Of a stretch of DNA of 35,617 nt, positions 827 through 29,761 are shown piece after piece. Under the pieces are notes generated by a model. It was not told where the DNA came from. It did not search any database and worked only from the letters and a program-made list of their open reading frames with translations. Made by a program: the position numbers and the translations under genes. This DNA is from a virus (Duplodnaviria; Caudoviricetes): positions 1 to 35,617 of IMG/VR virus record IMGVR_UViG_3300033076_000376; one strand, written 5' to 3'. Positions within the stretch are counted from its first letter, which is position 1, and the number at the start of each line of letters is the position of its first letter.

Positions 827-2329
827 TTACTTCTCTAATGATTCGTGAATAATCATGGTGGTTTTTTCTTCAGAAAGTGGTTTTTCCATCTCTCGAAGCG
901 CAGTTGCACGGTCACCAAAAATGGCTGATAGAACTCCACCCGATGCTTGACGCTCAGCAGTAATTGTGATGCGCTCTTTGTTCTGGTCTAGCTCATGAAC
1001 TGACTTAACCAATTTCAACAAACGGTCAACTTCTTGAGAGGTATTTGGGTCAGCGTATCCACCATTCAATTCCTCTGCAAACCGCATGAATGCTACTCTC
1101 TGGCCCTGCATTTCAATAATTGAAGTGAGCAGTGACTTGAGTTGGTCTTTAGTTCTAACCTCAATTGGGAGGTTAAATGCACAGGTGTTTGAGGGCTTAA
1201 ATGCAGGGCAATTTGCTGCTACAAAACAGGTATCACACTGTCGTAATGAGGACGCATTTGTCTGTACAACAGGTACTTGCTTGAGCACATCTCGACCATC
1301 TTCGGTCTCAATAATGGTCTTAACTTCATACCCAAAAACAGGCATAGAAGTGACTTCTTGAGGGTCTCTTTGTACCAATTCTGTCGGTTCGTTTTTCCGC
1401 ATCTCGACATCACTGTTACCAGAAAGGTATGCACCCATTTCCATCAAACCTGTGTATAGGGTGTCATCACTGTTATCAGATACTACTGGCTTCTTGCCGC
1501 CCTGCACTACCTTTAGGTCTGGTTTTTCTTTATCCATAGTATTTGCCTCTAACTGTAAATACGACCAAATTGCGAGGCGAGTTGCCTCCAATGTGTCATC
1601 TTCAATAAACTTCTTAAAATCTAGACCCGCACGCTCTACAATGTTCTTGTATCTAGGTCTGGCTTGTGCCTTCATGCTCTTCGGATAGCGAACTAACTTA
1701 CCGCCATCCCACACAATTGTCTCCCCACGACGCATCGGAGAGAGCCACGAAAGTGTGCTAGAGGTGCTAAAAGGAATCTGCCGCAAGTTGTCTGGCTTGG
1801 CTGTAGCGAGGGCGTGGAACCTCACTGGGTGTTTCTGTGTAAGTTGCCGTGTGATGCCTGCCAGGGACGTCACAGCCTCTATAGCTTCCCCAGGAATGGC
1901 TATGTTACGGTACTCTTCTGCCCATCTTTGTAGGAGCATGGTGTTATACGACTCATGCCAAACTACCCACAGTTTAGGGTCGTTATCGTACACTGAACGG
2001 TTCTGAATGATTGCTGGCAATCCCAGTACTTGACTATCGAACTCAGTAAATCCTTCAATGCGGTCATAATTGAACGCAATAAACTCTTCATAATCAGCGC
2101 AATACTCCTCAAGTTCACGCTTAGATAGGTTCGCTTTATCTGCCTGCGTTGCACCAGAATCTACCCAGACCCTCATGTCGGCTCGAAAATGTTCTGCAAT
2201 CAGGTATTGTTTAGTCTTAGGCAACCCACGCTTACGGAGCCCCCAGTAGTTCAACATGACATTTTGAACACCGTTTCGCTCCAATAGTGTTCGGTTACTA
2301 GGTATTTCTACGCCATTGAAAATAATCAC
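827..2329 (-). CDS. TGT/DpdA (queuine tRNA-ribosyltransferase-like) TIM-barrel protein fused to a C-terminal Cys4 plus helical domain
   Basis: Ordered TGT/DpdA-like motifs WVDSGA (D57), FTEFD (D98), VVWH (H125), IAIPG, RFHALA, PFSTSSTLSWL..RRG; C-terminal CDTC-x5-C-x8-C followed by long helices ending GGVLSAIFG. Confidence 0.65.
   Translation of the reverse strand: MIIFNGVEIPSNRTLLERNGVQNVMLNYWGLRKRGLPKTKQYLIAEHFRADMRVWVDSGATQADKANLSKRELEEYCADYEEFIAFNYDRIEGFTEFDSQVLGLPAIIQNRSVYDNDPKLWVVWHESYNTMLLQRWAEEYRNIAIPGEAIEAVTSLAGITRQLTQKHPVRFHALATAKPDNLRQIPFSTSSTLSWLSPMRRGETIVWDGGKLVRYPKSMKAQARPRYKNIVERAGLDFKKFIEDDTLEATRLAIWSYLQLEANTMDKEKPDLKVVQGGKKPVVSDNSDDTLYTGLMEMGAYLSGNSDVEMRKNEPTELVQRDPQEVTSMPVFGYEVKTIIETEDGRDVLKQVPVVQTNASSLRQCDTCFVAANCPAFKPSNTCAFNLPIEVRTKDQLKSLLTSIIEMQGQRVAFMRFAEELNGGYADPNTSQEVDRLLKLVKSVHELDQNKERITITAERQASGGVLSAIFGDRATALREMEKPLSEEKTTMIIHESLEK
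1408..1480. repeat. 16-bp direct repeat CATCACTGTTAYCAGA, two copies 57 bp apart, in the interdomain linker
   Basis: catcactgttaccaga at 1408-1423 and catcactgttatcaga at 1465-1480; the core ctgttatc also occurs at 814-821. Confidence 0.7.
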
Positions 2330-2814
2330 TCGAAGTTCAACGCCTCAGTACGGCTCAAACGAGCATCCTGCGTCAATGCGGTGTTTTGACGCTCTACGGC
2401 TTCTTGAATCTGGTCCCATGAACGAATCTTTTTAGGGGCATCAGGGCGAAACTCAGGTCTCAAATAGGCTGGCTGACCAAACATCATGCTAGGAATACCC
2501 TGCTCAAATGCAAATGCCCAGGTTGATGGGTTGGCAGTAATCAGCAGGTCGATGTGGCGATAGGCACGGGCTGAGGTAATCTGACGGTGCACAAGCTCTT
2601 CGCCATCTAGATTGAATGATGAATCCAGCAAGTGGTCGTAATCCACTACCTTATTGACATCCAACCATTGACGAACCTCTGCTGGCTTCATGGATGTGAA
2701 AAAACTAATCTGGTTGTACGCACTCAACTGAGCGATTAGTAGCAGACCATTGGTAATAGGCTCATCATTACGATGTCCCTTTAATACCCCATCTAGTTCT
2801 ACGAGTATGTGCAT
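2326..2814 (-). CDS. HAD-superfamily-like protein with variant motif I
   Basis: N-terminal ILVELDGVL matches HAD DxDG(V/T)L with the first Asp replaced by Glu; FFTS at the motif II position; WLDVN..DYD as in PNKP/5'-nucleotidase-like HADs. Confidence 0.6.
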   Translation of the reverse strand: MHILVELDGVLKGHRNDEPITNGLLLIAQLSAYNQISFFTSMKPAEVRQWLDVNKVVDYDHLLDSSFNLDGEELVHRQITSARAYRHIDLLITANPSTWAFAFEQGIPSMMFGQPAYLRPEFRPDAPKKIRSWDQIQEAVERQNTALTQDARLSRTEALNFE

Positions 2815-2820
2815 TTCTTC

Positions 2821-2919
2821 CTATTGTGCTTCGTAACAATCGCATTTGCAGGTATCCACTATACAAATTTCTTGGTACAGTTCATGCCCACAAATACGGC
2901 AAGTATCAAGTAGTGACAC
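2821..2919 (-). CDS. 32-aa Cys-rich microprotein (putative metal-binding)
   Basis: Not in the ORF track. GTG start overlaps the upstream TAG (TAGTG); MSLLDTCRICGHELYQEICIVDTCKCDCYEAQ; fills the gap between NTase and HAD almost exactly. Confidence 0.6.
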   Translation of the reverse strand: MSLLDTCRICGHELYQEICIVDTCKCDCYEAQ

Positions 2920-3812
2920 TATTTTCTTCCGTATAGAGCTGCCCTACGAATTAGTGTCCCTGCATCAGGCAACTCTACTCCGTAGGTATTGGTGGTTGTG
3001 TGCTTAACTAACTCCTGTGCGTATTCACGCATAGTTCGAAGCATTCCAATAGTTCCGTTACGCTTTCCAGCTTGCCAACGGTAATTGTGGAAATCGTTGT
3101 ATCCCTCACCAGCAGGGGAGAATGCAATTGAACGGTTTTGGTGAATCTCATCAAACAAGGCGTTGCCCTGCTGAGATGCGGCAGCTAGTCGTGCCTCAGC
3201 ATTTCTTCGAGTGGCTTCTCCATGTGCCATTTGCACGTCCTGCATGGCGGCATTAAATCGAGTAGTTGCTTGGTGTGCTGCAGCATAGTCGGAGTTTGCT
3301 ACACTTTCCCATTCTGGGTTACGCTTTGGGGACAATGACTTATCAGGGTGCACTGTCCACTCGTCGTACTTCAAATCGTATGCAGCGTATGGCTTGATGA
3401 CCCTAATGTCCGTGGCAGATGGGTTCACGTAAAATGTAAGTTCATACCCATTCCAGTTTTCAGTGGTAGGCTGCAACTCGGTGCGGAATCCGTCGTTAAG
3501 CTCTTCTGCAATGTCTCGGTCGCTCAACCCGCTGTAGGCTGGGTTAGCCTTACGAAACTGTACAAAATCTACACCAACTAGACAGTCTAGGTCTCCAGGC
3601 TGTCTGCTGGCTTCCCATTGGTATGAAACGCCAGAACCAGCCAACCATGGTCTTGACCACAGTTCGGCATGTTGGTAAGTACGATTTAGGTAATCGTTTA
3701 GCAGATGAACAATTCCCTGACGTACCCACGATTGCATGGTGCGACCCTGAAACAACTTAGGGTCAAGTTGCTCAGAAGGCTCACTAAAATAGGACGTCGG
3801 GTTATTAGTCAT
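2919..3812 (-). CDS. Pol beta-superfamily nucleotidyltransferase (phage type)
   Basis: WLAGSGVSYQW...GDLDCLV (GS plus DxD), third acidic residue in ELTFYV, AAYDL..DEW...P, helical C-terminus. Confidence 0.8.
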   Translation of the reverse strand: MTNNPTSYFSEPSEQLDPKLFQGRTMQSWVRQGIVHLLNDYLNRTYQHAELWSRPWLAGSGVSYQWEASRQPGDLDCLVGVDFVQFRKANPAYSGLSDRDIAEELNDGFRTELQPTTENWNGYELTFYVNPSATDIRVIKPYAAYDLKYDEWTVHPDKSLSPKRNPEWESVANSDYAAAHQATTRFNAAMQDVQMAHGEATRRNAEARLAAASQQGNALFDEIHQNRSIAFSPAGEGYNDFHNYRWQAGKRNGTIGMLRTMREYAQELVKHTTTNTYGVELPDAGTLIRRAALYGRK

Positions 3813-3824
3813 ACGACTAGTTTA
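3813..3824 (-). promoter_or_regulatory. Putative leaderless promoter (-10 TAAACT, 6 nt before ATG)
   Basis: TAA-TAAACT-agtcgt-ATG with no Shine-Dalgarno. Confidence 0.5.
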
Positions 3825-4115
3825 TTAGTTTGTTGCTGTAGTCTCTGGCTTAATGCCACGCTCATTTAGGGCGTCAGCCATGATGTTGGCAACATTCTGT
3901 GGGGCTGGTGCCAAACGAGCTAGGACTGCTCCTGAAACACGGTCTGCTAGGAACGATGCCTCCATCTCTCGAACAATGTCACGTAGAGTGGTGTACACCT
4001 CATAAGTGGTTGCCTTGTGGTTAGAAGTAGGGATTTCCTCTGGCAACTCAGCGTACGTAGTAAATGTACCGTCTGAGTTAACGGTTACTAGGAACATAGT
4101 TTCAACGTTTGCCAT
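3825..4115 (-). CDS. Hypothetical protein
   Basis: ORF track 3825..4160; start moved to MANVET (ATG 4115) behind an AGGAG RBS. Confidence 0.75.
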   Translation of the reverse strand: MANVETMFLVTVNSDGTFTTYAELPEEIPTSNHKATTYEVYTTLRDIVREMEASFLADRVSGAVLARLAPAPQNVANIMADALNERGIKPETTATN

Positions 4116-4284
4116 TTTTCTTCTCCTGCAATTCACGCATAATGCGCTGTAGTGCGACAACGTCCTTGTGGACCTGGTCGTCTTCCTTAATGTGTACAGC
4201 TAGTTTAGTGATAATAAAAATTAGTAGAACTGTGATTGCGGTAACATAACCTGCAATTAGCCATAGGGCGATTGTTGGTGTCAT
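4102..4284 (-). CDS. Small single-pass membrane protein
   Basis: Hydrophobic IALWLIAGYVTAITVLLIFII followed by a charged coiled tail; TAATG coupling. Confidence 0.7.
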   Translation of the reverse strand: MTPTIALWLIAGYVTAITVLLIFIITKLAVHIKEDDQVHKDVVALQRIMRELQEKKNGKR

Positions 4285-4853
4285 TAGTTATACATTCCCA
4301 TAATTCGACGTTTACGCTGAACAACCTCACCGTGATACGGGCAGAAATTGCATACGTAAATTTTAGGGCCATCAAGGTGCTCAGGTTTTGGCAAACCTAG
4401 TTCACCACGTTCCTTAGCAGTATCTGGCAACAGACGTTTTGACGGCTTTTGGTAATCATCGCAGTCATTCTTAGGTTGGTTGTGGCGTTGCCAGCATTCC
4501 ATGGCATCATTAGCAAACGTCATCTTGGTTTCATAGAATGACTTATCAGGGTCCAGGTCATCTAGACCCTTTGAACCACCTTTACCGAGTTGCTCTAGAA
4601 CAGCTTTACGCTCATCAGGATTTGCCCAGGTCTTTACTGGAACCTTAAACAACTTACCCACGTGCGGGTCTCCAGAAGGAAACTTGTGCTTTTCCAAAGA
4701 AATCTCTAGGAGATAGTCACGGTCTGATGGACCTTCATAGTCAGGCAGCTCTTCCCATGTTTCACAAACGAAACAACGAAGTAGGCGAATAATCGGTCCT
4801 TCGACTGGCTTAGACCCAATCAACGGCTTACCGTTTACGTCTTGCAAACTCAT
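4284..4853 (-). CDS. Hypothetical protein with Cys/His zinc ligands
   Basis: CFVC...H...H, C...H...C, CNFCPYH; strong AAGGAG RBS. Confidence 0.8.
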   Translation of the reverse strand: MSLQDVNGKPLIGSKPVEGPIIRLLRCFVCETWEELPDYEGPSDRDYLLEISLEKHKFPSGDPHVGKLFKVPVKTWANPDERKAVLEQLGKGGSKGLDDLDPDKSFYETKMTFANDAMECWQRHNQPKNDCDDYQKPSKRLLPDTAKERGELGLPKPEHLDGPKIYVCNFCPYHGEVVQRKRRIMGMYN

Positions 4854-4961: not shown

Positions 4962-5168
4962 TTACTTACCTGGGTTGACCTTATTAGGGAACTCAGATGT
5001 TGCAAAACCATAACCCCAGAATGGGTTAAGAGTCTGACGGTTGTCAGTGGTCTTTTCGTTACCTTCGATGTCTAGGACTTCGGTGTCTGGGCGGACCTTG
5101 CGGTACTTACCGTCGGTTGCACCCTCTTCAAGGCTTGCGTTCATTGAACGTGAGGTGTTAACTGCCAT
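4962..5168 (-). CDS. Hypothetical protein (possible virion component)
   Basis: 68-aa ORF, TAATG-coupled, last gene before the terminator. Confidence 0.8.
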   Translation of the reverse strand: MAVNTSRSMNASLEEGATDGKYRKVRPDTEVLDIEGNEKTTDNRQTLNPFWGYGFATSEFPNKVNPGK

Positions 5169-5425
5169 TAGTGAGCCTTACCTTTCGAAATGTGTGCATT
5201 TAGGTAACCCATGGTTGCCTGCATGTCACCAGTATCTACTGAACCGTGTGGACCACGGTGAAGGTCTGCAAAATCCTCAAAAGCGTCGTCAACTGCTCGT
5301 TGAGTGCCTTCTGATGGGTTAGCTTCGTGAGCTGACTTTGCTGCAAGCAGGTTCTTGTATGAGTTTGCCTTAGTAGCAAGGTCAAGCATGTCCTTAGGAC
5401 CCTTACGGTCTGCGTTTGTAATCAT
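5168..5425 (-). CDS. Hypothetical protein, Ala/His-rich helical
   Basis: 85-aa ORF abutting both neighbours; GAAAGA RBS-like sequence. Confidence 0.75.
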   Translation of the reverse strand: MITNADRKGPKDMLDLATKANSYKNLLAAKSAHEANPSEGTQRAVDDAFEDFADLHRGPHGSVDTGDMQATMGYLNAHISKGKAH

Positions 5426-5626
5426 TTATGCCATCTTTCCTTTCACACGTCGGTTCAATCGGTCCTGGTAGCAAGGAGGGCATAGTCCCTTGCTGTACAT
5501 GAACTCGACTGGGTTCATAATCACTCCGCACTGTGGGCAGGGATTTGAACCTTTATACAGAGTAGCATTTTCAGCAATTTTCCATGCCTGCAACTCTAAA
5601 GTTTCTGCTCCATCGCCATTAAACAT
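5426..5626 (-). CDS. Small zinc-finger protein
   Basis: CPQC-x13-CPPC; TAATG coupling. Confidence 0.75.
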   Translation of the reverse strand: MFNGDGAETLELQAWKIAENATLYKGSNPCPQCGVIMNPVEFMYSKGLCPPCYQDRLNRRVKGKMA

Positions 5627-5817
5627 TAGGCTAGGTCCTCTCGAATAGCTCTGGTTTTTGCAGCACTACGAGTACGTGCTCGTTTATCTGCTGGGTTTTG
5701 TTGTGCACCTGTTTTAATCTTTCCTGAAGACTCAAATAGTGCAGCACGCTCAGCTTTTAATCTGGCAGCATTAACATCTATTTGCATTTTCTTTGATGCA
5801 CGGTTAGGCACGGTCAT
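5626..5817 (-). CDS. Small basic hypothetical protein
   Basis: 63 aa, Arg/Lys/Ala-rich, TAATG overlaps at both ends. Confidence 0.7.
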   Translation of the reverse strand: MTVPNRASKKMQIDVNAARLKAERAALFESSGKIKTGAQQNPADKRARTRSAAKTRAIREDLA

Positions 5818-6857
5818 TACTGCCCTACTTTTTCCTTGTACTCGCTAAGGTGCTTTCCTGCTTCAAGAATTGCATCTTGACCGATAGTGCTCTTGATGCC
5901 AGCATTGGTGGCAGCACCCTGAGCAATTGAAGCTGCACGCATAATGTGGCCTGCTGCATTTGTGAAGTGCTTTACTGCATCCTCTGTACGACCAAGGCTA
6001 TTTGCTTTAGCAGATACGGCTAGCGATTCACGTGCGCTGCGAGTAGATTCTGCAATCGGGTCGGTGCTCTTTACTCCACCCACATTTTGAGTGTGATGCT
6101 CCATGACTCTCTTAGCTAGGTCTTCCATAGCTTCGTGGTGCTCATTAGTTGGTACAGTAGCAATTGGGCTACGGCTAGCTTCTGGATAGTTGGCACGACT
6201 AACATTCATCTCAGCAAAGTTAGACCACTTACCCGTAGAAGGGTGACGGTCAATCTTAGGCTCAATAAGCACTCCAAGCTTGTCGAATACCTGCTTGTGA
6301 GCTGGTGTTGGGAATGCTCGCTGCTCAATAGCGGCTTTAATTGGGCGATTACGCTTAGCAACTGCTTCTTCTGGACGAGCAGAGTCTTCAGCAGTGTTAA
6401 CTACTTCACCTGCCATAGTACGTGGAAGCTTGGCTACGTGGTCTGAGATTGCCTTACGGCCTCCAGCTGAGTTCTGCCATGCTGCACGAGATGCGTCATC
6501 CATTTCGTGCCAACCTGGAAGTGATGAGGCATTAGGTCTTTTTGCTCTTTCAGCTTCGTAAATCTTGCCGTGAGTCTCCGCATTGAGAGCACCGTACTTA
6601 GGTCTGTCATCACGGGCTCCGCTACCTGCACTGGCGTTCATTCCAGCTGCAGCAGTCTTGGCTCGTGCCTTTCGGTCAGCCTCTTCATCACTAGAACGCA
6701 TTAGGTCCTCAGTAGATGCTCCAGTACCGTAATCCATACCGTACTCATGAATGTTTTCGCTGGTGTCTTCTTCTCTTTCATGAGCATCTACGTCATGATA
6801 CGAAGCAGGCTCTACTACACTGCTTTCTACATCCCAGTTTTCTTTGCCTCTACTCAT
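5817..6857 (-). CDS. Hypothetical protein, disordered acidic N-terminus plus His/Ala helical C-terminal domain
   Basis: 346-aa ORF, TGATG coupling; KHFTNAAGHIMRAA-type helices. Confidence 0.8.
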   Translation of the reverse strand: MSRGKENWDVESSVVEPASYHDVDAHEREEDTSENIHEYGMDYGTGASTEDLMRSSDEEADRKARAKTAAAGMNASAGSGARDDRPKYGALNAETHGKIYEAERAKRPNASSLPGWHEMDDASRAAWQNSAGGRKAISDHVAKLPRTMAGEVVNTAEDSARPEEAVAKRNRPIKAAIEQRAFPTPAHKQVFDKLGVLIEPKIDRHPSTGKWSNFAEMNVSRANYPEASRSPIATVPTNEHHEAMEDLAKRVMEHHTQNVGGVKSTDPIAESTRSARESLAVSAKANSLGRTEDAVKHFTNAAGHIMRAASIAQGAATNAGIKSTIGQDAILEAGKHLSEYKEKVGQ

Positions 6858-7591
6858 CAGGCATCTCCCTTTGCGGTCTTGGCTGCACGCTTCATCGATG
6901 CAGGGTAAATCTTCTTTTGGAAAAATGCGTCTGGAGATGTGTACCCACCAAAAGCGCCACCATGCTTATAGGTTTTTTCACCTTCAGCGTTCTTAATTGG
7001 CTTGTCACGCTCAGTATCTACAGACATCTGCTCACCACGATACTTGCTATTGACTCCGACAGACCACAAGTTGTTCTTCTCGTCAGTCTTAAACAGCTTT
7101 GCAGGCTGATACGCCTTACCGTAGTTTCCGATAGACTCAAGTGCTTTACCAATTGCTGCATGTACGTGAGGTGCCTCTGAGGAACCCAGCTGTTCTCGCA
7201 TTGAACCTAGAGCACCAGAAACCTCTTTAAGATGTGCACCAACTTTACTCATCTGCTCTTCATGAGAAGCATTCTGAGTGGTATTGTGGGCTGACACGGC
7301 ATTTGCGAGATGCATACCTGCCAACATTGCAAATCCAGAGGCGGCTGGGTTAACGTGCTGAGCCAAATCCGATGCACTATTTACATGTGAAATTGCGTCC
7401 TGAAGGTGCTGATGAGCTGCTTCGGCTACCTTAGGGTTGTAAGTTGTCTCAGCGTTAAGCTGGTCAGTCCAAGCCTGAGCTCCGCCCTTGCCTTCCAAAG
7501 GCAGATTGGCGAGGTGTCTTGGTACGTTGTTACCTTCGTTACCTTCAAGGCCTTTAGCAGTTTTGTTACCCGAATTCTTATTACCAGCCAT
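6857..7591 (-). CDS. Hypothetical protein, His/Ala-rich helices
   Basis: 244-aa ORF; AHQHLQDAISHV, AGMHLANAVSAH, GAHLKEV. Confidence 0.8.
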   Translation of the reverse strand: MAGNKNSGNKTAKGLEGNEGNNVPRHLANLPLEGKGGAQAWTDQLNAETTYNPKVAEAAHQHLQDAISHVNSASDLAQHVNPAASGFAMLAGMHLANAVSAHNTTQNASHEEQMSKVGAHLKEVSGALGSMREQLGSSEAPHVHAAIGKALESIGNYGKAYQPAKLFKTDEKNNLWSVGVNSKYRGEQMSVDTERDKPIKNAEGEKTYKHGGAFGGYTSPDAFFQKKIYPASMKRAAKTAKGDA

Positions 7592-7947
7592 TAGTCACTT
7601 CCTAAACTATTTCTACTGCTACCAGAATACCCTGCGACGCTTCCTGAGTACCAGGAAACTCGTGGCTCTGCGTATACACGGTCAATACTAACCACATCAT
7701 CAATGCCAGGCTGACTACGGTCTCCCCAACCAAAACGGTCAGGGAATAAACGAATCTGGGGAAGATTTGGGCGAACTAACTGCTGTAATTGAGCACCAGG
7801 AATAAGTGCAACAGACAGTGCCTGCTGTGTTAGGCGCTCTTCATTAGAAGACCATGGGCCGTTATAGCTATAAACGCTGGGGGTCGAGCCTCCTGGCCCA
7901 TCCCACGGTTTAGTCTGGTCATACTGACCATTTACATGTTGGGTCAC
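7591..7947 (-). CDS. Hypothetical protein
   Basis: 118-aa ORF, Gly/Ser/Pro-rich, overlaps both neighbours. Confidence 0.75.
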   Translation of the reverse strand: MTQHVNGQYDQTKPWDGPGGSTPSVYSYNGPWSSNEERLTQQALSVALIPGAQLQQLVRPNLPQIRLFPDRFGWGDRSQPGIDDVVSIDRVYAEPRVSWYSGSVAGYSGSSRNSLGSD

Positions 7948-8882
7948 TTATTTGCCCCTTCACGGAATGCGTCTAGGTGAGCAGTTCGCAGTGAGATTGG
8001 TGCCAAACCGTGATTAGCTGGGTCAAACTCTGGGTTATTTCGAAGTAGGTTTCCAGTAATAGTAATGTTGGCGTTGGCAGAACGAGCTGCTTTAGCATTA
8101 ACTTGAACCTTATTATTGATTTGGTGCATCCAGTGCATTGCTTGGAAATCTGAAAGGCTTGTTCCTTCTGGAACTAGTTTTTGCTTTAAAGCTTTTTGGT
8201 GTGCATCGGCGTATGCATTCTGCATAAATGAGTAAACACCAGCTTTTGCTAAGTGGGTATTGCCTGTACCGTAAGGAATGTGGTAACTATTCATGGCAGC
8301 ATCATACGCATGAGTGTCAATTACTGCTGCAGGATGATGTCCAGCAGTTGCCAAAGCCATTGCAAAATCTGGAGTCTTGTTAGAACCATTCTTTTTAATT
8401 TTAAAAATGTCTAGTGGGTGGTCTACTTCGTCATCACGAACTTTAAGCGCTGCAGAAATGTTATCGCTAGTTTGAAGGCTTAGCGGTGTTCCTGGAAGTC
8501 CTGCACGTCTACGAAGGGCACTAGTTGCGCCCTTTATTTCGTCTGCAGAGCGACCTTCGCTACGCATTTCTTTACCAATTTCGGCTGACCTGTGAATTAG
8601 TTTTGTAGAACGGTCATCAATGTTAGGGAGCTGCAATCCCATCATTCGGTTCTTATTCCAGTCAGTGCTGGCAGATAGCTTTGCAATAGCTGAGCTAGCA
8701 CCTAAAGTGCCACCACCAAATTGGCTACTTAGGTATTCCGCATCTTGATTGCCTGACTTATACCATGCACCACCTTGAGATACTGATTCAGGGGTTAGCT
8801 GCTTAGTTCGATGAATAAGATTGTTGACAATCTGTTTGTGCGAAACATCGTTAAGCTCAAACTTTCCAGGTTCTAATGCCAT
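7944..8882 (-). CDS. HhH-GPD DNA glycosylase-like phage protein
   Basis: GGAWY, IAKLSASTDWNKN, KTPDF, AVIDTHA (cf. EndoIII VDTH), Y..MQNAY..A, FQAMHW; a motif series typical of a phage glycosylase-fold family. Confidence 0.6.
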   Translation of the reverse strand: MALEPGKFELNDVSHKQIVNNLIHRTKQLTPESVSQGGAWYKSGNQDAEYLSSQFGGGTLGASSAIAKLSASTDWNKNRMMGLQLPNIDDRSTKLIHRSAEIGKEMRSEGRSADEIKGATSALRRRAGLPGTPLSLQTSDNISAALKVRDDEVDHPLDIFKIKKNGSNKTPDFAMALATAGHHPAAVIDTHAYDAAMNSYHIPYGTGNTHLAKAGVYSFMQNAYADAHQKALKQKLVPEGTSLSDFQAMHWMHQINNKVQVNAKAARSANANITITGNLLRNNPEFDPANHGLAPISLRTAHLDAFREGANK

Positions 8883-8885
8883 TGA

Positions 8886-9419
8886 TTAACTCCATACTGG
8901 CTTAAGGTACGCCAAGGCGTTTGCACGTTGGACGTTCAATGTGGTTGGGGAATTGGCAACAGTATTAGTCTTGCCATCATTTACAAGGTGTGGAGCAGGA
9001 ATCAAAGTAATGTCTGGGGCACTCTTAGGAGTTACCCACACATTTACACCATTTACGTCTGTGTACTTGGCCTTCATTTGACGGCTAATACCCTGCTGGT
9101 CGTTGAAGCCCATAGACCAGTAATACGAGCTAGGCTCAATTCTTTCACCCTTGTGCACACCACGTTGGTATGCTTTCTGGTTAACACGATTCTTGATGCT
9201 ATCCAGTAGACGGTCATCTCTACGACTCCTAATGGTACCTAGGTAACCATCAGGGTACTCTGCGGACGGAACACGCCCAGTACCGATACGGATAGCATCA
9301 AGTTCGCCACGGGCAACAGGAGTACCTGCACCACCTTGGTTGTTATAGCCATAAAATCCGCCAGCGCCAAGCGACTGCCAGTTTTGACTAGGAGAGAAAT
9401 TCTGTGCGTTTCCAGCCAT
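8886..9419 (-). CDS. Hypothetical protein (possible virion protein)
   Basis: 177-aa ORF, Gly/Asn/Gln-rich N-terminus, core PSAEYPDGYLGTIRSRRDDRLL...YQRGVHKGERI. Confidence 0.8.
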   Translation of the reverse strand: MAGNAQNFSPSQNWQSLGAGGFYGYNNQGGAGTPVARGELDAIRIGTGRVPSAEYPDGYLGTIRSRRDDRLLDSIKNRVNQKAYQRGVHKGERIEPSSYYWSMGFNDQQGISRQMKAKYTDVNGVNVWVTPKSAPDITLIPAPHLVNDGKTNTVANSPTTLNVQRANALAYLKPVWS

Positions 9420-9946
9420 TAGTTTTGCCCATTGTACTTACGCCAGCTCCAGTTACGGACTGACTTATCTGGGTCTTCAATGTTGAACGACTGCTTCTCA
9501 TTACGAGTCTTCAGCAATTGACGAATAACATGCGGCGGAGTGTCTGAAGGATACAGGTCAGTGGCGTCCATTTGAACACCTTGGGCTCGACCCTTTTTAG
9601 TGCGGTCTTCAACCCATGAACCAAGGGCAACGTTCTTATTTCCACCAGAAGCATACTTGACATACTCTGCATGTGCGAGTACGTCATTTTGGGTTAGCTT
9701 AGGGTTATCTTTGCCTTGGTCGACATAATGTGTAGGAATTCGACCCTCTTGAACGGCACTTCTAGAACCACCAACGGCATGGAGTTTATCCGTACCAACC
9801 TCAGCCACTTTATAGGTGTAAGGGTTCATAGTTGCGCCACGCTGACCACGAGGACCGTTATTAGTTAGGTCAGCGAACTTTTGTGCACCTTCAAGGCGTG
9901 CTTGAACATCTGCGGCAAACTTTAGTCTACGAGCAATTCCAAACAT
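9419..9946 (-). CDS. Hypothetical protein
   Basis: 175-aa ORF; ALGSWVE...VQMDAT...NEKQSFNI resembles the LGxW..vxlD..QxAIFD pattern of uncharacterised phage domains. Confidence 0.75.
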   Translation of the reverse strand: MFGIARRLKFAADVQARLEGAQKFADLTNNGPRGQRGATMNPYTYKVAEVGTDKLHAVGGSRSAVQEGRIPTHYVDQGKDNPKLTQNDVLAHAEYVKYASGGNKNVALGSWVEDRTKKGRAQGVQMDATDLYPSDTPPHVIRQLLKTRNEKQSFNIEDPDKSVRNWSWRKYNGQN

Positions 9947-9951
9947 GATTC

Positions 9952-10230
9952 CTACTTACCTTGAGATGCTGGTGGAGTAACTTCAGGGTTTGATGCGTTG
10001 TAGTTGGTTACGCCACTATTAGTGTGAATGTCCAGTGGAGCATTCAGGTCTGTAGCAGTGTTTTGAGCGTAGTTTTGCTCTACAGTGCTACGGTTTCTAC
10101 CACCAATGACTCGACGGGCACCTTGGAAACGAGCATTCGCTGCAAAAGGTGAGCCTGAGTCAGAAGATGGTAACTGACGAGCAGCTCCCGCTTGCCTCTG
10201 CTGCTCGTCAGAAAGGAAGTCGCCACTCAT
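9952..10230 (-). CDS. Hypothetical low-complexity protein
   Basis: 92-aa ORF, TAATG coupling, probably disordered. Confidence 0.7.
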   Translation of the reverse strand: MSGDFLSDEQQRQAGAARQLPSSDSGSPFAANARFQGARRVIGGRNRSTVEQNYAQNTATDLNAPLDIHTNSGVTNYNASNPEVTPPASQGK

Positions 10231-10929: not shown

Positions 10930-11223
10930 TTAGCTTGCTGAAATGGCAAACACAATTGCAGAAATCTCGCCATCACGAGACTCGATTGTGGTAAAACCAG
11001 GTACGCAAACTAGGTCCAGTCCACGAGGGGCGACATACCCACGAGAAATGGCGATAGACTTAACGGCTTGGTTTACAGCTCCAGCACCAACAGCACGCAG
11101 CTTTACCTGCTTGTTGTCGTAGATTGCGTGAGCGATTGCCGATGCTACTGATTGTGGGTTCGACCCTGCGGATACACGCAGGAACGGCTCTTCTGTCGAA
11201 GGTACGATTGTTTCGTCGGTCAT
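10930..11223 (-). CDS. spoVS: Stage V sporulation protein S (SpoVS) family protein
   Basis: LRVSAGSNPQSVASAIA...LRAVGAGAVNQAVKSIAISRGYVAPRGLDLVCVPGF...ISAIVF, near the SpoVS consensus. Confidence 0.93.
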   Translation of the reverse strand: MTDETIVPSTEEPFLRVSAGSNPQSVASAIAHAIYDNKQVKLRAVGAGAVNQAVKSIAISRGYVAPRGLDLVCVPGFTTIESRDGEISAIVFAISAS

Positions 11224-27604: not shown

Positions 27605-29761
27605 TTACGAAAAGTCTGAAAAACTCTCACCTGAGTTGGAGTACCAGCTCACACGGTATGGGGTATTTAGTGGCAAGAATCCCTTAATTTCTTGGCTTAA
27701 ACGTAGAGAACGGTATGCCAAATTAGGGTAAATGTGGGAAATTGAGCTCATTGGAGTTCCTTGCCAAGCAGCACCACTAGCTATTAGTGACCCATCAAAA
27801 TAATCTGATGCAGTTCTTGACATCTCGCACTGAGCGCCATCAAACTCTACAGTTGCCCCATTTAGATTTCCAGAAAGGCTAGCAGTCAATGGGGATGAAC
27901 TAAATGTCAGTAGGTCACTGTATAGTGTTACTTCAAATCTTTGCCAAGATGTAGTGAGCGTGATTGTCTTGGATGAAATGTTGGTGGTACCTCTAGCAAG
28001 AGTCAGAGTTACGTCTTTAGTGTCACTAGCTGTATTAGAGACTAGCTTTGCATAAATTGAAAAAGTATAGAACTGGTCTGCAGTATTTGCAGTTGGCATA
28101 GCTGTTGACAAGAATGTTGTGTCAGTAGACTTACCAACTATTTGTAGTTTCTTTAGTCCAACTCGACCTTCTGGCCCATCGTATGCGCTTCCATACCCCA
28201 AAGCAACTCGTGAGAATGATGCGACATCTTTAGTCCAACCTGTTAGGGCTAGACCAGAATCATTGAACTCAAAACTAGGGTTTACAACATGGTTAGTTTT
28301 TGATGGGTTCAAGAAAATGTTTACAGCACGTGCTTCTTGGAAATCGGTCTCTGATGATTCAGCAAATTGAACCATGTCAATTGCATACCCGCATGGTCCA
28401 GTAAATGTGAATGAAATACTTGCGTATACTGCTGCATTAGGCGCAGTTGTTGTAAACGAAACCTTAGTCCAGCTATCTACCTCAGTGGCTGAAACTGCAG
28501 CAACTGGTGCTCCGATTCGAGTACCCTTACGGTCGTACCAAGTTATTTCTGGAAGAATGCTTGCAGTTACTCCGTTGTGCGCTCCAGTGGTAGAACCATA
28601 AACACTAAGCGTGTATTCGGTGTTTCCAACAACAGGGATGCCACGAGTAGTTGGGCTTGCTGCACCATTTGTTATTGACGCACTAGCGGTAGTTACCGTA
28701 ACACGGGCAGTGTAGCTAAGGTCAATTGCAAATGCTTCGGTTTCTGGAACCTGTCGGTCTTGAGCAATAGCGATGGTTGAACCAGTGTTAGCGACCCAAA
28801 ATCCCACGCCCTCATTAAACGTGCTGTCTTGGCTAGATAGCATTAAGTTAGGAGAGACGGTAACGTTAGCGTCGTAACCACTAACACTTTCAACGTAAGT
28901 CTGAAGACCAGAAGTAGTTCCCTTACGACGATAGATGTACAGAGCTTCACGAACAAGTTGCTTTTGAGTTTTTGAAATACCGACAATGTCATTTGTCAAA
29001 CCAAGTTGCTGTGTCTGTAGTTCCAAAATACCTGGGTCAGTATTTTTTCCAGTTTGCTCAGGAAGAATCAAATCAGCATGGGTCAAAAACTCGTCTAGAG
29101 TTAAAGAGAATGCTGACAAAAAAGTTGACAACAAACTGTTCTCAGTTATTCCAGAAGCATCAATTGTAGAGTCATACTCTTGAGAAACATCTAGAGGTCC
29201 TTGCTGAGCTCCACTAAACACTCGTGGAATAAACCCCATAAATCTGTCATGAGTTGTAGACAATGACTGAGACCCAATAGTCGTATCTCTAATGACCCCA
29301 TCTTCAGTTACTGTTGCTACAGTCTCTGTGCTAGTCGCACTAGCGTGATTTCCTGGAACTAGAGTGTATGTGTCTCCTGCCCGAACCCAAGCACCAGTTG
29401 GGTCTAGCAAAATCCATGCACGATAAAAAGCAAATCTACCGCCAACTAATGGGCTTGAATTTTTTGCAATCGTATCTTCACCATCGACAAACGTAGCTAA
29501 ATCAATGGTTTCATTAGTCGAAGTGTAGAAATCGTAAAGAATAGCACCATCCTCTTCCGTTTCTGGAAAAGCGTTCTGGTTACGTACTAGGCGAAACCCT
29601 ACATAGGACGCTACTGAAGTATTGGCAGGCTTTGACCAATTTACACGTACTTTGTTATAGCCGATTGCCACTGATGACAACGGTTCAGCACTAAATGCAA
29701 TTCTAGAAGGCTCACCATAGGTGACTCCAGAACCGTAGATTACTTCAGAAAATTTAGCCAA
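27605..29761 (-). CDS. Baseplate/tail protein: FN3-like, P2 gpI-like and two carbohydrate-binding-module-like domains
   Basis: VRVNWSKP (FN3); LVREALYIYRRKGTTSGL (gpI); NLML..DSTF.EG..W and NHVVNPSFE (CBM-like); DYFDGS. Confidence 0.8.
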   Translation of the reverse strand: MAKFSEVIYGSGVTYGEPSRIAFSAEPLSSVAIGYNKVRVNWSKPANTSVASYVGFRLVRNQNAFPETEEDGAILYDFYTSTNETIDLATFVDGEDTIAKNSSPLVGGRFAFYRAWILLDPTGAWVRAGDTYTLVPGNHASATSTETVATVTEDGVIRDTTIGSQSLSTTHDRFMGFIPRVFSGAQQGPLDVSQEYDSTIDASGITENSLLSTFLSAFSLTLDEFLTHADLILPEQTGKNTDPGILELQTQQLGLTNDIVGISKTQKQLVREALYIYRRKGTTSGLQTYVESVSGYDANVTVSPNLMLSSQDSTFNEGVGFWVANTGSTIAIAQDRQVPETEAFAIDLSYTARVTVTTASASITNGAASPTTRGIPVVGNTEYTLSVYGSTTGAHNGVTASILPEITWYDRKGTRIGAPVAAVSATEVDSWTKVSFTTTAPNAAVYASISFTFTGPCGYAIDMVQFAESSETDFQEARAVNIFLNPSKTNHVVNPSFEFNDSGLALTGWTKDVASFSRVALGYGSAYDGPEGRVGLKKLQIVGKSTDTTFLSTAMPTANTADQFYTFSIYAKLVSNTASDTKDVTLTLARGTTNISSKTITLTTSWQRFEVTLYSDLLTFSSSPLTASLSGNLNGATVEFDGAQCEMSRTASDYFDGSLIASGAAWQGTPMSSISHIYPNLAYRSLRLSQEIKGFLPLNTPYRVSWYSNSGESFSDFS

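Follow-up and report, generated by a model that had tools for sequence, protein, structure and literature searches.

A DpdA/TGT-type barrel lacking its catalytic nucleophile, fused to a small-terminase-like module in BRock-like myoviruses

Gene context and domain architecture

The window (i.e., the whole 35.6-kb stretch of DNA that was analysed) is a fragment of a myovirus genome, in which a Pfam scan recovered baseplate, DNA polymerase A, RecA, WhiB, SpoVS and ribonucleotide reductase genes. Its minus strand harbours (827..2329) a 500-aa fusion gene that joins a nucleophile-less DpdA/TGT barrel to a Cys4-helical, TerS-like module; it starts with GTG, overlaps the stop of the upstream gene and belongs to PHROG 887 (E 8.7e-61, residues 1-492). 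The closest cultured relatives of the encoded protein (34-35% identity over the full length) come from the Streptomyces phages BRock, LuckySocke, Alone3, pSt2308 and GiJojo, followed by Bacillus phage BCD7 and Bacteroides phage BS162P1; taken together, WhiB and the Streptomyces-phage relatives suggest an actinobacterial host. Among the candidates scored, relatives of the protein amounted to 1,587 at 90% clustering. The protein had no match in Pfam, NCBIfam or PADLOC, and solved structures, searched by sequence and by profile, returned nothing useful.

Two genes upstream, on the same strand, accompany it: the nearer (162 aa, 2326..2814) in all 18 IMG/VR loci, BRock and GiJojo, and the next (297 aa, 2919..3812) in 17 of the 18 (the 18th locus being too short), BRock and GiJojo. 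From its motif we take the 162-aa product to be HAD-like, with Glu replacing the first catalytic Asp, and the 297-aa product, judged by eye, is presumably a Pol-beta-type nucleotidyltransferase. The former had no match in Pfam, NCBIfam or PADLOC, and the sole Pfam match of the latter was DUF6932 (E 0.034). The window, BRock and the 18 IMG/VR loci share one gene order between SpoVS and the 500-aa gene. A SpoVS homologue (10930-11223 in the window) also stands upstream of the 500-aa gene, at a distance of a few genes, in the window phage, BRock, BCD7 and BS162P1, as a marker across three host phyla. Low-complexity genes rich in Ala/Lys/Gly (5168-7591, 7944-8882, 9419-10230), variable among relatives, are interspersed with conserved small genes (8886-9419, 7591-7947, 5426-5626, 4962-5168); as a guess, the variable ones may encode capsid cargo proteins.

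The original prediction had started from this ORF and a series of motifs, all of which are present: DSGA (D57), EFD (D98), VVWH (H125), IPG (145-147), HALA (172-175), PFSTSSTLSW (with S191), the cysteines 365/368/374/383 (C-x2-C-x5-C-x8-C) and GGVLSAIFG (464-472).

The protein opens with a TGT/DpdA (beta/alpha)8 barrel (aa 1-265; 1535..2329, minus strand, as for all features below), assigned by modelling and fold searches, within which aa 196-240 form a basic stretch (12 K/R vs 4 D/E by charge count). The linker that follows (aa 266-364; 1238..1534) is disordered at 273-315, has a predicted beta-hairpin at 337-352 and is under the weakest constraint (uncorrected pN/pS of 0.24 for the barrel vs 0.57 for linker residues 263-325, from 7 sequences with synonymous sites near saturation). 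A linker of ~60 aa had been anticipated; it exists, but the distance from barrel to Cys4 is about 100 aa. The Cys4 knuckle (aa 365-383; 1181..1237), whose cysteines are retained in 133, 133, 133 and 132 of 133 relatives, likely binds zinc. Next come two long helices (aa 394-421 and 428-449; 983..1150) that form a putative oligomerisation hairpin in the AlphaFold model, and then, delimited by conservation, an alternating-pattern stretch (aa 452-461) and a G-x-L-S-x-x-F-G helix (aa 465-472; both within 827..976). We regard this last region, modelled at low confidence, as a candidate beta-barrel strand plus TerL-binding tail. The helical region had been described as ending in GGVLSAIFG; the motif is there, but 28 residues come after it.

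Fold of the N-terminal domain

An AlphaFold model of the 500-aa protein, built on an alignment of 133 sequences, reached a pLDDT of about 97 over aa 1-260 (and <50 at aa 453-465) and has eight barrel strands, with S191 on the eighth and D57, D98 and H125 placed after strands 3, 4 and 5. When the full-length model was searched against 48,161 chains, the top five all belonged to the TGT family (Z 17.2-14.8): arcTGT was the best match (Z 17.2, rmsd 3.5, 254 aligned), followed by DpdA 7UI4 (Z 16.8, rmsd 3.5, 259 aligned), Cap10 (Z 16.3), bacterial TGT (15.5) and QTRT2 (14.8), with the next unrelated barrel at 12.6. The Foldseek PDB matches listed for the model were likewise all TGT. Both searches thus place aa 1-265 in the TGT family, and the domain, as modelled, is a TGT/DpdA-type barrel, as had been claimed from the motifs.

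Loss of the nucleophile

In DpdA, Asp256 is reported to be the nucleophile (Asp256Ala abolishes exchange), and Asp95, Asp130 and His181 to act on the base (PMC10164549). The column of Asp256 is occupied here by S191 (codon AGC, 1757..1759), an assignment that stems from strand position in the model and alignment to BCD7 gp21 and BS162P1 gp87 (both with Asp in this column), rather than from coordinate superposition. Asp occurs in 0 of the 121 close relatives (S or T in all 121) and in 1 of the 133 diverse ones, where S (62), A (17), T (16), G (14) and M (6) were recorded and where no conserved replacement Asp/Glu was found within one residue. Since the close set comprises the best 120 of 1,587 and the diverse one was chosen among the top 150 of 887 matches, more distant Asp-bearing members would not be seen. 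The loss of the nucleophilic Asp, which the original prediction had proposed as an Asp-to-Ser change to be examined in homologues, is clade-wide apart from this one diverse relative; the barrel is probably an inactive enzyme and, as far as activity can be read from sequence, the protein does not belong with the active DpdA enzymes. That Ser191 stems from a sequencing error was ruled out by the agreement of 121/121 relatives.

The exception, P0142, is the only one of the 133 to hold the full catalytic set, nucleophile Asp included, and it speaks against reading the barrel as dead. A midpoint-rooted tree of 48 barrels (41 hand-picked from the 133, BRock, BCD7 and 5 of 9 BS162P1-type loci) gathered the 42 actinophage barrels on one branch (support 100/99), with P0142 nested inside among Asp-less relatives, a position best read as one loss plus one return or a survivor.

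P0142 would also suit an enzyme that is still active, i.e., a transglycosylase or glycosylase that acts on guanine or on preQ0 made by the host, with water or a different nucleophile in place of the Asp, and so would the retained general acid and base-binding residues and the listing of the BRock protein as a DpdA (PMC6884629 supplement 7). We hold such activity to be very improbable: the variation of column 191 among S, A, T, G and M indicates that no nucleophile is required there, no conserved Asp/Glu has taken its place within one residue, and Asp256Ala is reported to kill DpdA (PMC10164549).

In agreement with the absence of que genes first noticed, a Pfam scan found none among the 48 ORFs of the window (itself a genome fragment), and none of 5 actinophage-type relatives (two of them at least 90% complete) yielded QueC, QueD or FolE, so that a deazaguanine for the barrel to read is probably not produced by the phage. 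The Asp-bearing barrels are located beside such genes, with folE/queC/queD/queE in BCD7 and with queC and queE (the latter seen in 8) in BS162P1 and 9 related loci. Since further locus searches added no other lineage (P0188 retrieved no loci, and BCD7 gp21 retrieved BCD7 alone), the association of Asp with que genes rests on two lineages. The same supplement lists the BRock protein as a lone DpdA and the BCD7 protein with its pathway (PMC6884629 supplement 7), which means that the family (BRock gp36, BCD7 gp21) was already catalogued, but as an enzyme. These states may reflect a history in which an active dpdA stood beside the module in a que cluster (the BS162P1 state), would then have been fused to it (the BCD7 state) and would have lost the nucleophile once, in an actinophage line without que genes.

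Pocket residues and base recognition

The catalytic-pocket residues of the DSGA, EFD and VVWH motifs are present, as originally noted: D57 (2159..2161), the equivalent of the general acid/base D95 of DpdA, D98 (2036..2038), that of the base-binding D130, and H125. Among the 121 close relatives, D57 is found in 120, D98 in 121, H125 in 116 and H172 in 121; among the 133 diverse ones the counts are 85, 108 and 80 for D57, D98 and H125, and 66 have the full triad. Much better preserved in the latter set are the barrel residues W195 (132), G202 (130), W207 (122), R214 (115) and R224 (114), together with the four cysteines (132-133). The nearest sister lineages do not have the triad. At the stacking-aromatic position after DSG, which is Y or F in BCD7 and BS162P1, the protein has T61 (T/V/S/I in 116/121 close relatives), and its substrate Gly loop reads IPG and is variable (G147 in 53/121).

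On the coding strand, CTT/CTC is depleted (vs synonymous resampling) in five consecutive minus-strand genes (827-4853; z -2.3 to -3.5), with 28 observed vs 41 expected in the target gene; outside this operon, one tail gene (27605-29761) and one small gene showed depletion among the 32 genes tested. The dip over the target gene is much deeper in three relatives (L006, L007, L008, around 10001), at 6-14 per 1.5 kb. A tie between the depletion and the 500-aa protein is hypothetical.

The near-invariance of D57, D98, H125 and H172 in close relatives, the 66 complete triads at about 30% identity, the report that catalytically dead DpdA D95A retains DNA binding (PMC10164549) and the strand-specific depletion across the operon would all suit a TerS with a true base-reader barrel, in which guanine or 7-deazaguanine of a short motif is flipped uncut into the old pocket and licenses packaging. 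Specific base reading of this kind, which had been suggested at the outset, is not well supported and strikes us as quite improbable: the triad is confined to 66/133 relatives and lost in sister lineages, Thr (or V/S/I) stands at the stacking site, the Gly loop varies, QueC/QueD/FolE number 0/5, and DSG is absent from all 22 siphovirus homologues (see below). Considering that the barrel is kept up mainly through its last two strands and the basic stretch, a grip on DNA fits better than an obligatory base reader.

Relatives of the C-terminal module

A tblastn search with aa 344-490 retrieved 22 phage records, 10 of them family members and 12 weak matches (E 0.4-10); all 12 pointed to a single Tsukamurella/Gordonia gene that carries the label TerS in 10 of them. 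This label is reported as assigned by gene position (PMC4524720), which weighs against its use as evidence for a TerS. In profile comparison (hhalign) the module matched the siphovirus gene at 96.8% (E 2.7e-10); the Cys4 part reached 95.9%, and the helices alone 88.5% (E 2.7e-6; shuffled maximum 3.3%), while the tails of the 500-aa protein and of the siphovirus proteins had no relation. The full-protein profiles aligned collinearly over aa 142-468 (96.8%). A barrel-to-barrel sequence match alone was not above shuffles (4.1% vs 3.7%), a point against the TerS reading. The siphovirus gene lies directly before the annotated terminase in 9 of 10 records (in the tenth, Gmala1, the next gene is labelled differently) and precedes terL in 9/9 metagenome loci.

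A model of the N-terminal half of the siphovirus protein, built from 22 sequences, spaces its strands and helices as the barrel described here does. Its top four of 48,161 chains were TGT family (Z 11.7, 10.5, 10.3 and 10.2), by a modest margin over the next (9.9), and BFVD returned matches to phage TGT-like proteins; conversely, Foldseek matched the model of the 500-aa protein to the 'TerS' of Jumbo (E 2e-6). Given that DSG is absent in 22/22 and Asp is present in the aligned nucleophile column in 14/22, the siphovirus barrels represent a second, different decay of the TGT barrel.

The module also occurs apart from a barrel. In Trogglehumper, gp28 is a 199-aa module alone that overlaps terL; its match to the family's own profile is weak (E 91 at database size 100,000), which counts against the TerS reading, and it is linked via the siphovirus family. 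In ReqiDocB7 the siphovirus-type protein is split into two genes, and in BS162P1 the module is a separate gene after an intact dpdA. These arrangements point to an independent unit of TerS size. A search for shorter stand-alone forms retrieved mostly pieces from short contigs. In ReqiDocB7-type phages (L029:152-1548; P0271-P0282), a decayed barrel and the module stand as two genes before terL, and 11 of the 13 matches of this type are barrel-only proteins of about 290 aa.

Inserts were also observed in this family. Intein-like LAGLIDADG inserts are present in four of seven long relatives (P0154, P0212, P0213, P0218), in three of which they interrupt the Cys4 knuckle; the insert sites are three, i.e., before the second Cys, before the fourth Cys and in the barrel after strand 8. 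Inteins are typical of essential conserved sites. In P0125 and P0133 an N-terminal HNH domain is fused to the barrel; HNH proteins are known as terminase cofactors.

A candidate small-terminase subunit

Because the module is homologous to a gene that neighbours terL in siphoviruses of the Gordonia type, the protein is likely a small DNA-packaging subunit, and the TerS-like nature of the C-terminal part, at first a resemblance, is now backed by homology to genes in TerS position. The gene is a single-copy core gene, occurring once in each of 5 near-complete genomes selected through their terL, and the module is found in every one of the 10 records that have this type of TerL. Anti-defence genes are patchy in distribution. 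The original suggestion of a decoy against the host's Dpd or queuosine systems, or a role as their inhibitor, to which an inactive enzyme fold in a phage would lend itself, finds no support in this single-copy occurrence (5/5 genomes, all 10 records) nor in PADLOC, where no match was found; it also leaves the invariant Cys4 module unexplained, and we judge it extremely improbable.

Known TerS proteins are described as consisting of a DNA-binding domain, two antiparallel helices, a strand and a TerL-binding tail, in this order (10.1101/851345). The domain order of the 500-aa protein agrees with it: the model has two antiparallel helices (394-421, 428-449) and, at low confidence, the strand and tail. 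The fold lists were without any solved TerS, which says nothing against a TerS, because the searches used full-length proteins and the barrel filled the lists; in the Atlas, a T5 TerS cluster was found at 0.79, as a lead only. No TerS was recognised with PHROG among 146/155 ORFs of a 96%-complete relative (G001), nor is one recognised in the BRock annotation.

The distance to terL (about 55 kb in G001, and also large in BRock, GiJojo, BCD7 and BS162P1) argues against a TerS, as does an 80-aa all-helical gene upstream of terL at 84 of 85 terL loci (L129:1246-1488; L062-L141; BRock gp157) and in GiJojo. This helical gene beside terL could be the real TerS. (The GiJojo annotation calls the opposite strand at the locus; the homologue is on the terL strand.) If so, the 500-aa protein would have no part in packaging and may be a DNA- or protein-binding factor that acts with its nucleotidyltransferase-like and HAD-like neighbours, e.g., in late gene control or nucleotide tagging. 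The three-gene order, fixed in 17/18 loci as well as in BRock and GiJojo, is consistent with this, and Cap10, the third-best fold match, is reported to have a TGT fold and to bind a nucleotidyltransferase (10.1101/2025.04.06.647259). We nevertheless deem this explanation rather unlikely. The 80-aa family was not detected in 66 kb of BCD7 and 33 kb of BS162P1, terL regions included, both of which contain the module; the gene gave nothing informative by tblastn, resembled no TerS in PHROG or the Atlas, shares no relationship with the module and has neither strand nor tail after its helices. Furthermore, neither of the two neighbours was observed next to the gene in BCD7, BS162P1 or the siphovirus loci, and Cap10 is described as retaining its Asp (10.1101/2025.04.06.647259).

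We therefore favour, at a probability of roughly 55%, a small-terminase-type subunit of a BRock-like myovirus, in which a dead DpdA would serve as DNA-binding domain; both the binding and the packaging role are predicted from sequence and model. By the chemistry of DpdA, the Asp-less barrel should form no covalent intermediate and hence exchange no base. By the architecture of TerS, the helices (394-449) may form a ring and the strand and tail (452-500) may contact TerL, with the barrels held outside the ring on flexible linkers, where other TerS carry helix-turn-helix domains, and gripping DNA via the basic surface near strands 7-8. The TerLs of the myo- and siphoviruses have no BLAST similarity (E >1), which also speaks against the TerS reading; with unrelated TerLs, the module was not inherited together with one TerL, and different tails with different TerL partners are what the TerS layout would lead us to expect.

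If this small-terminase reading is right, the BRock-like myoviruses, an abundant group, gain the small terminase that had been missing from them, the labels 'queuine tRNA-ribosyltransferase' and 'DpdA-only', which imply DNA modification, are corrected, and a packaging motor is shown to have taken over a DNA-modifying enzyme to recognise its genome. As the cultured phages BRock, GiJojo, GMA7 and BCD7 span barrels that are dead, doubly decayed and intact, genome choice by TerS becomes testable through a domain with a defined pocket. A wider reading, to our mind distinctly unlikely, holds that dpdA fusions gave rise to giant small terminases in myo- and siphoviruses of several phyla, that a BCD7-type polypeptide both writes 7-deazaguanine and starts packaging, and that the dead barrel reads guanine in a strand-specific word that picks the packaging start; were it true, a self mark would be tied to encapsidation and the CTT/CTC depletion around the gene would be explained. 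In the literature covered (subscription papers and bioRxiv supplements being outside the scope), we came across no description of either a DpdA-TerS fusion or a loss of the nucleophile in this family.

Comparison with known systems

The protein shares with the DpdA of phages and bacteria (S. Montevideo DpdA, PDB 7UI4) the barrel fold (Z 16.8) and the equivalents of D95, D130 and H181, and with BCD7 gp21 and BRock gp36 its membership in PHROG 887. It differs from DpdA in the Ser of the nucleophile column, the lack of que genes, the C-terminal Cys4-helical fusion and the absence of a barrel zinc site (one Cys in aa 1-265).

TGT folds used for binding, and not for tRNA base exchange, are described for QTRT2, the non-catalytic TGT subunit that pairs with an active TGT, and for Cap10 of type IV CBASS. 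Cap10 is reported to retain its D248, to bind a deazaguanylated protein end and to be accompanied by a CD-NTase partner and the QueC-like Cap9 (10.1101/2025.04.06.647259), a type of gene absent in these phages; of the features of that system, Asp, QueC and a PADLOC match for the gene or its neighbours were not found here.

The solved small terminases (SF6, Sf6, 44RR, P22, P74-26) have the same domain order, with a linker-borne N-terminal DNA-binding domain; as described, this domain is a small helix-turn-helix or absent, in contrast to a 265-aa barrel, and no zinc knuckle figures in that description (10.1101/851345). The 500-aa protein had no sequence match to any solved chain.

The large 'terminase small subunit' of Gordonia, Tsukamurella and Rhodococcus siphoviruses (PHROG 6902, 16015; GMA7, TIN4, Jumbo, ReqiDocB7 gp001/gp002, Trogglehumper gp28) differs in its location directly before terL, its tail, its unrelated TerL and the decay of its barrel (DSG lost, Asp column 14/22), yet it shares with the 500-aa protein the entire order of parts: a TGT-like barrel, a linker, a Cys4, two helices, a strand and a tail.
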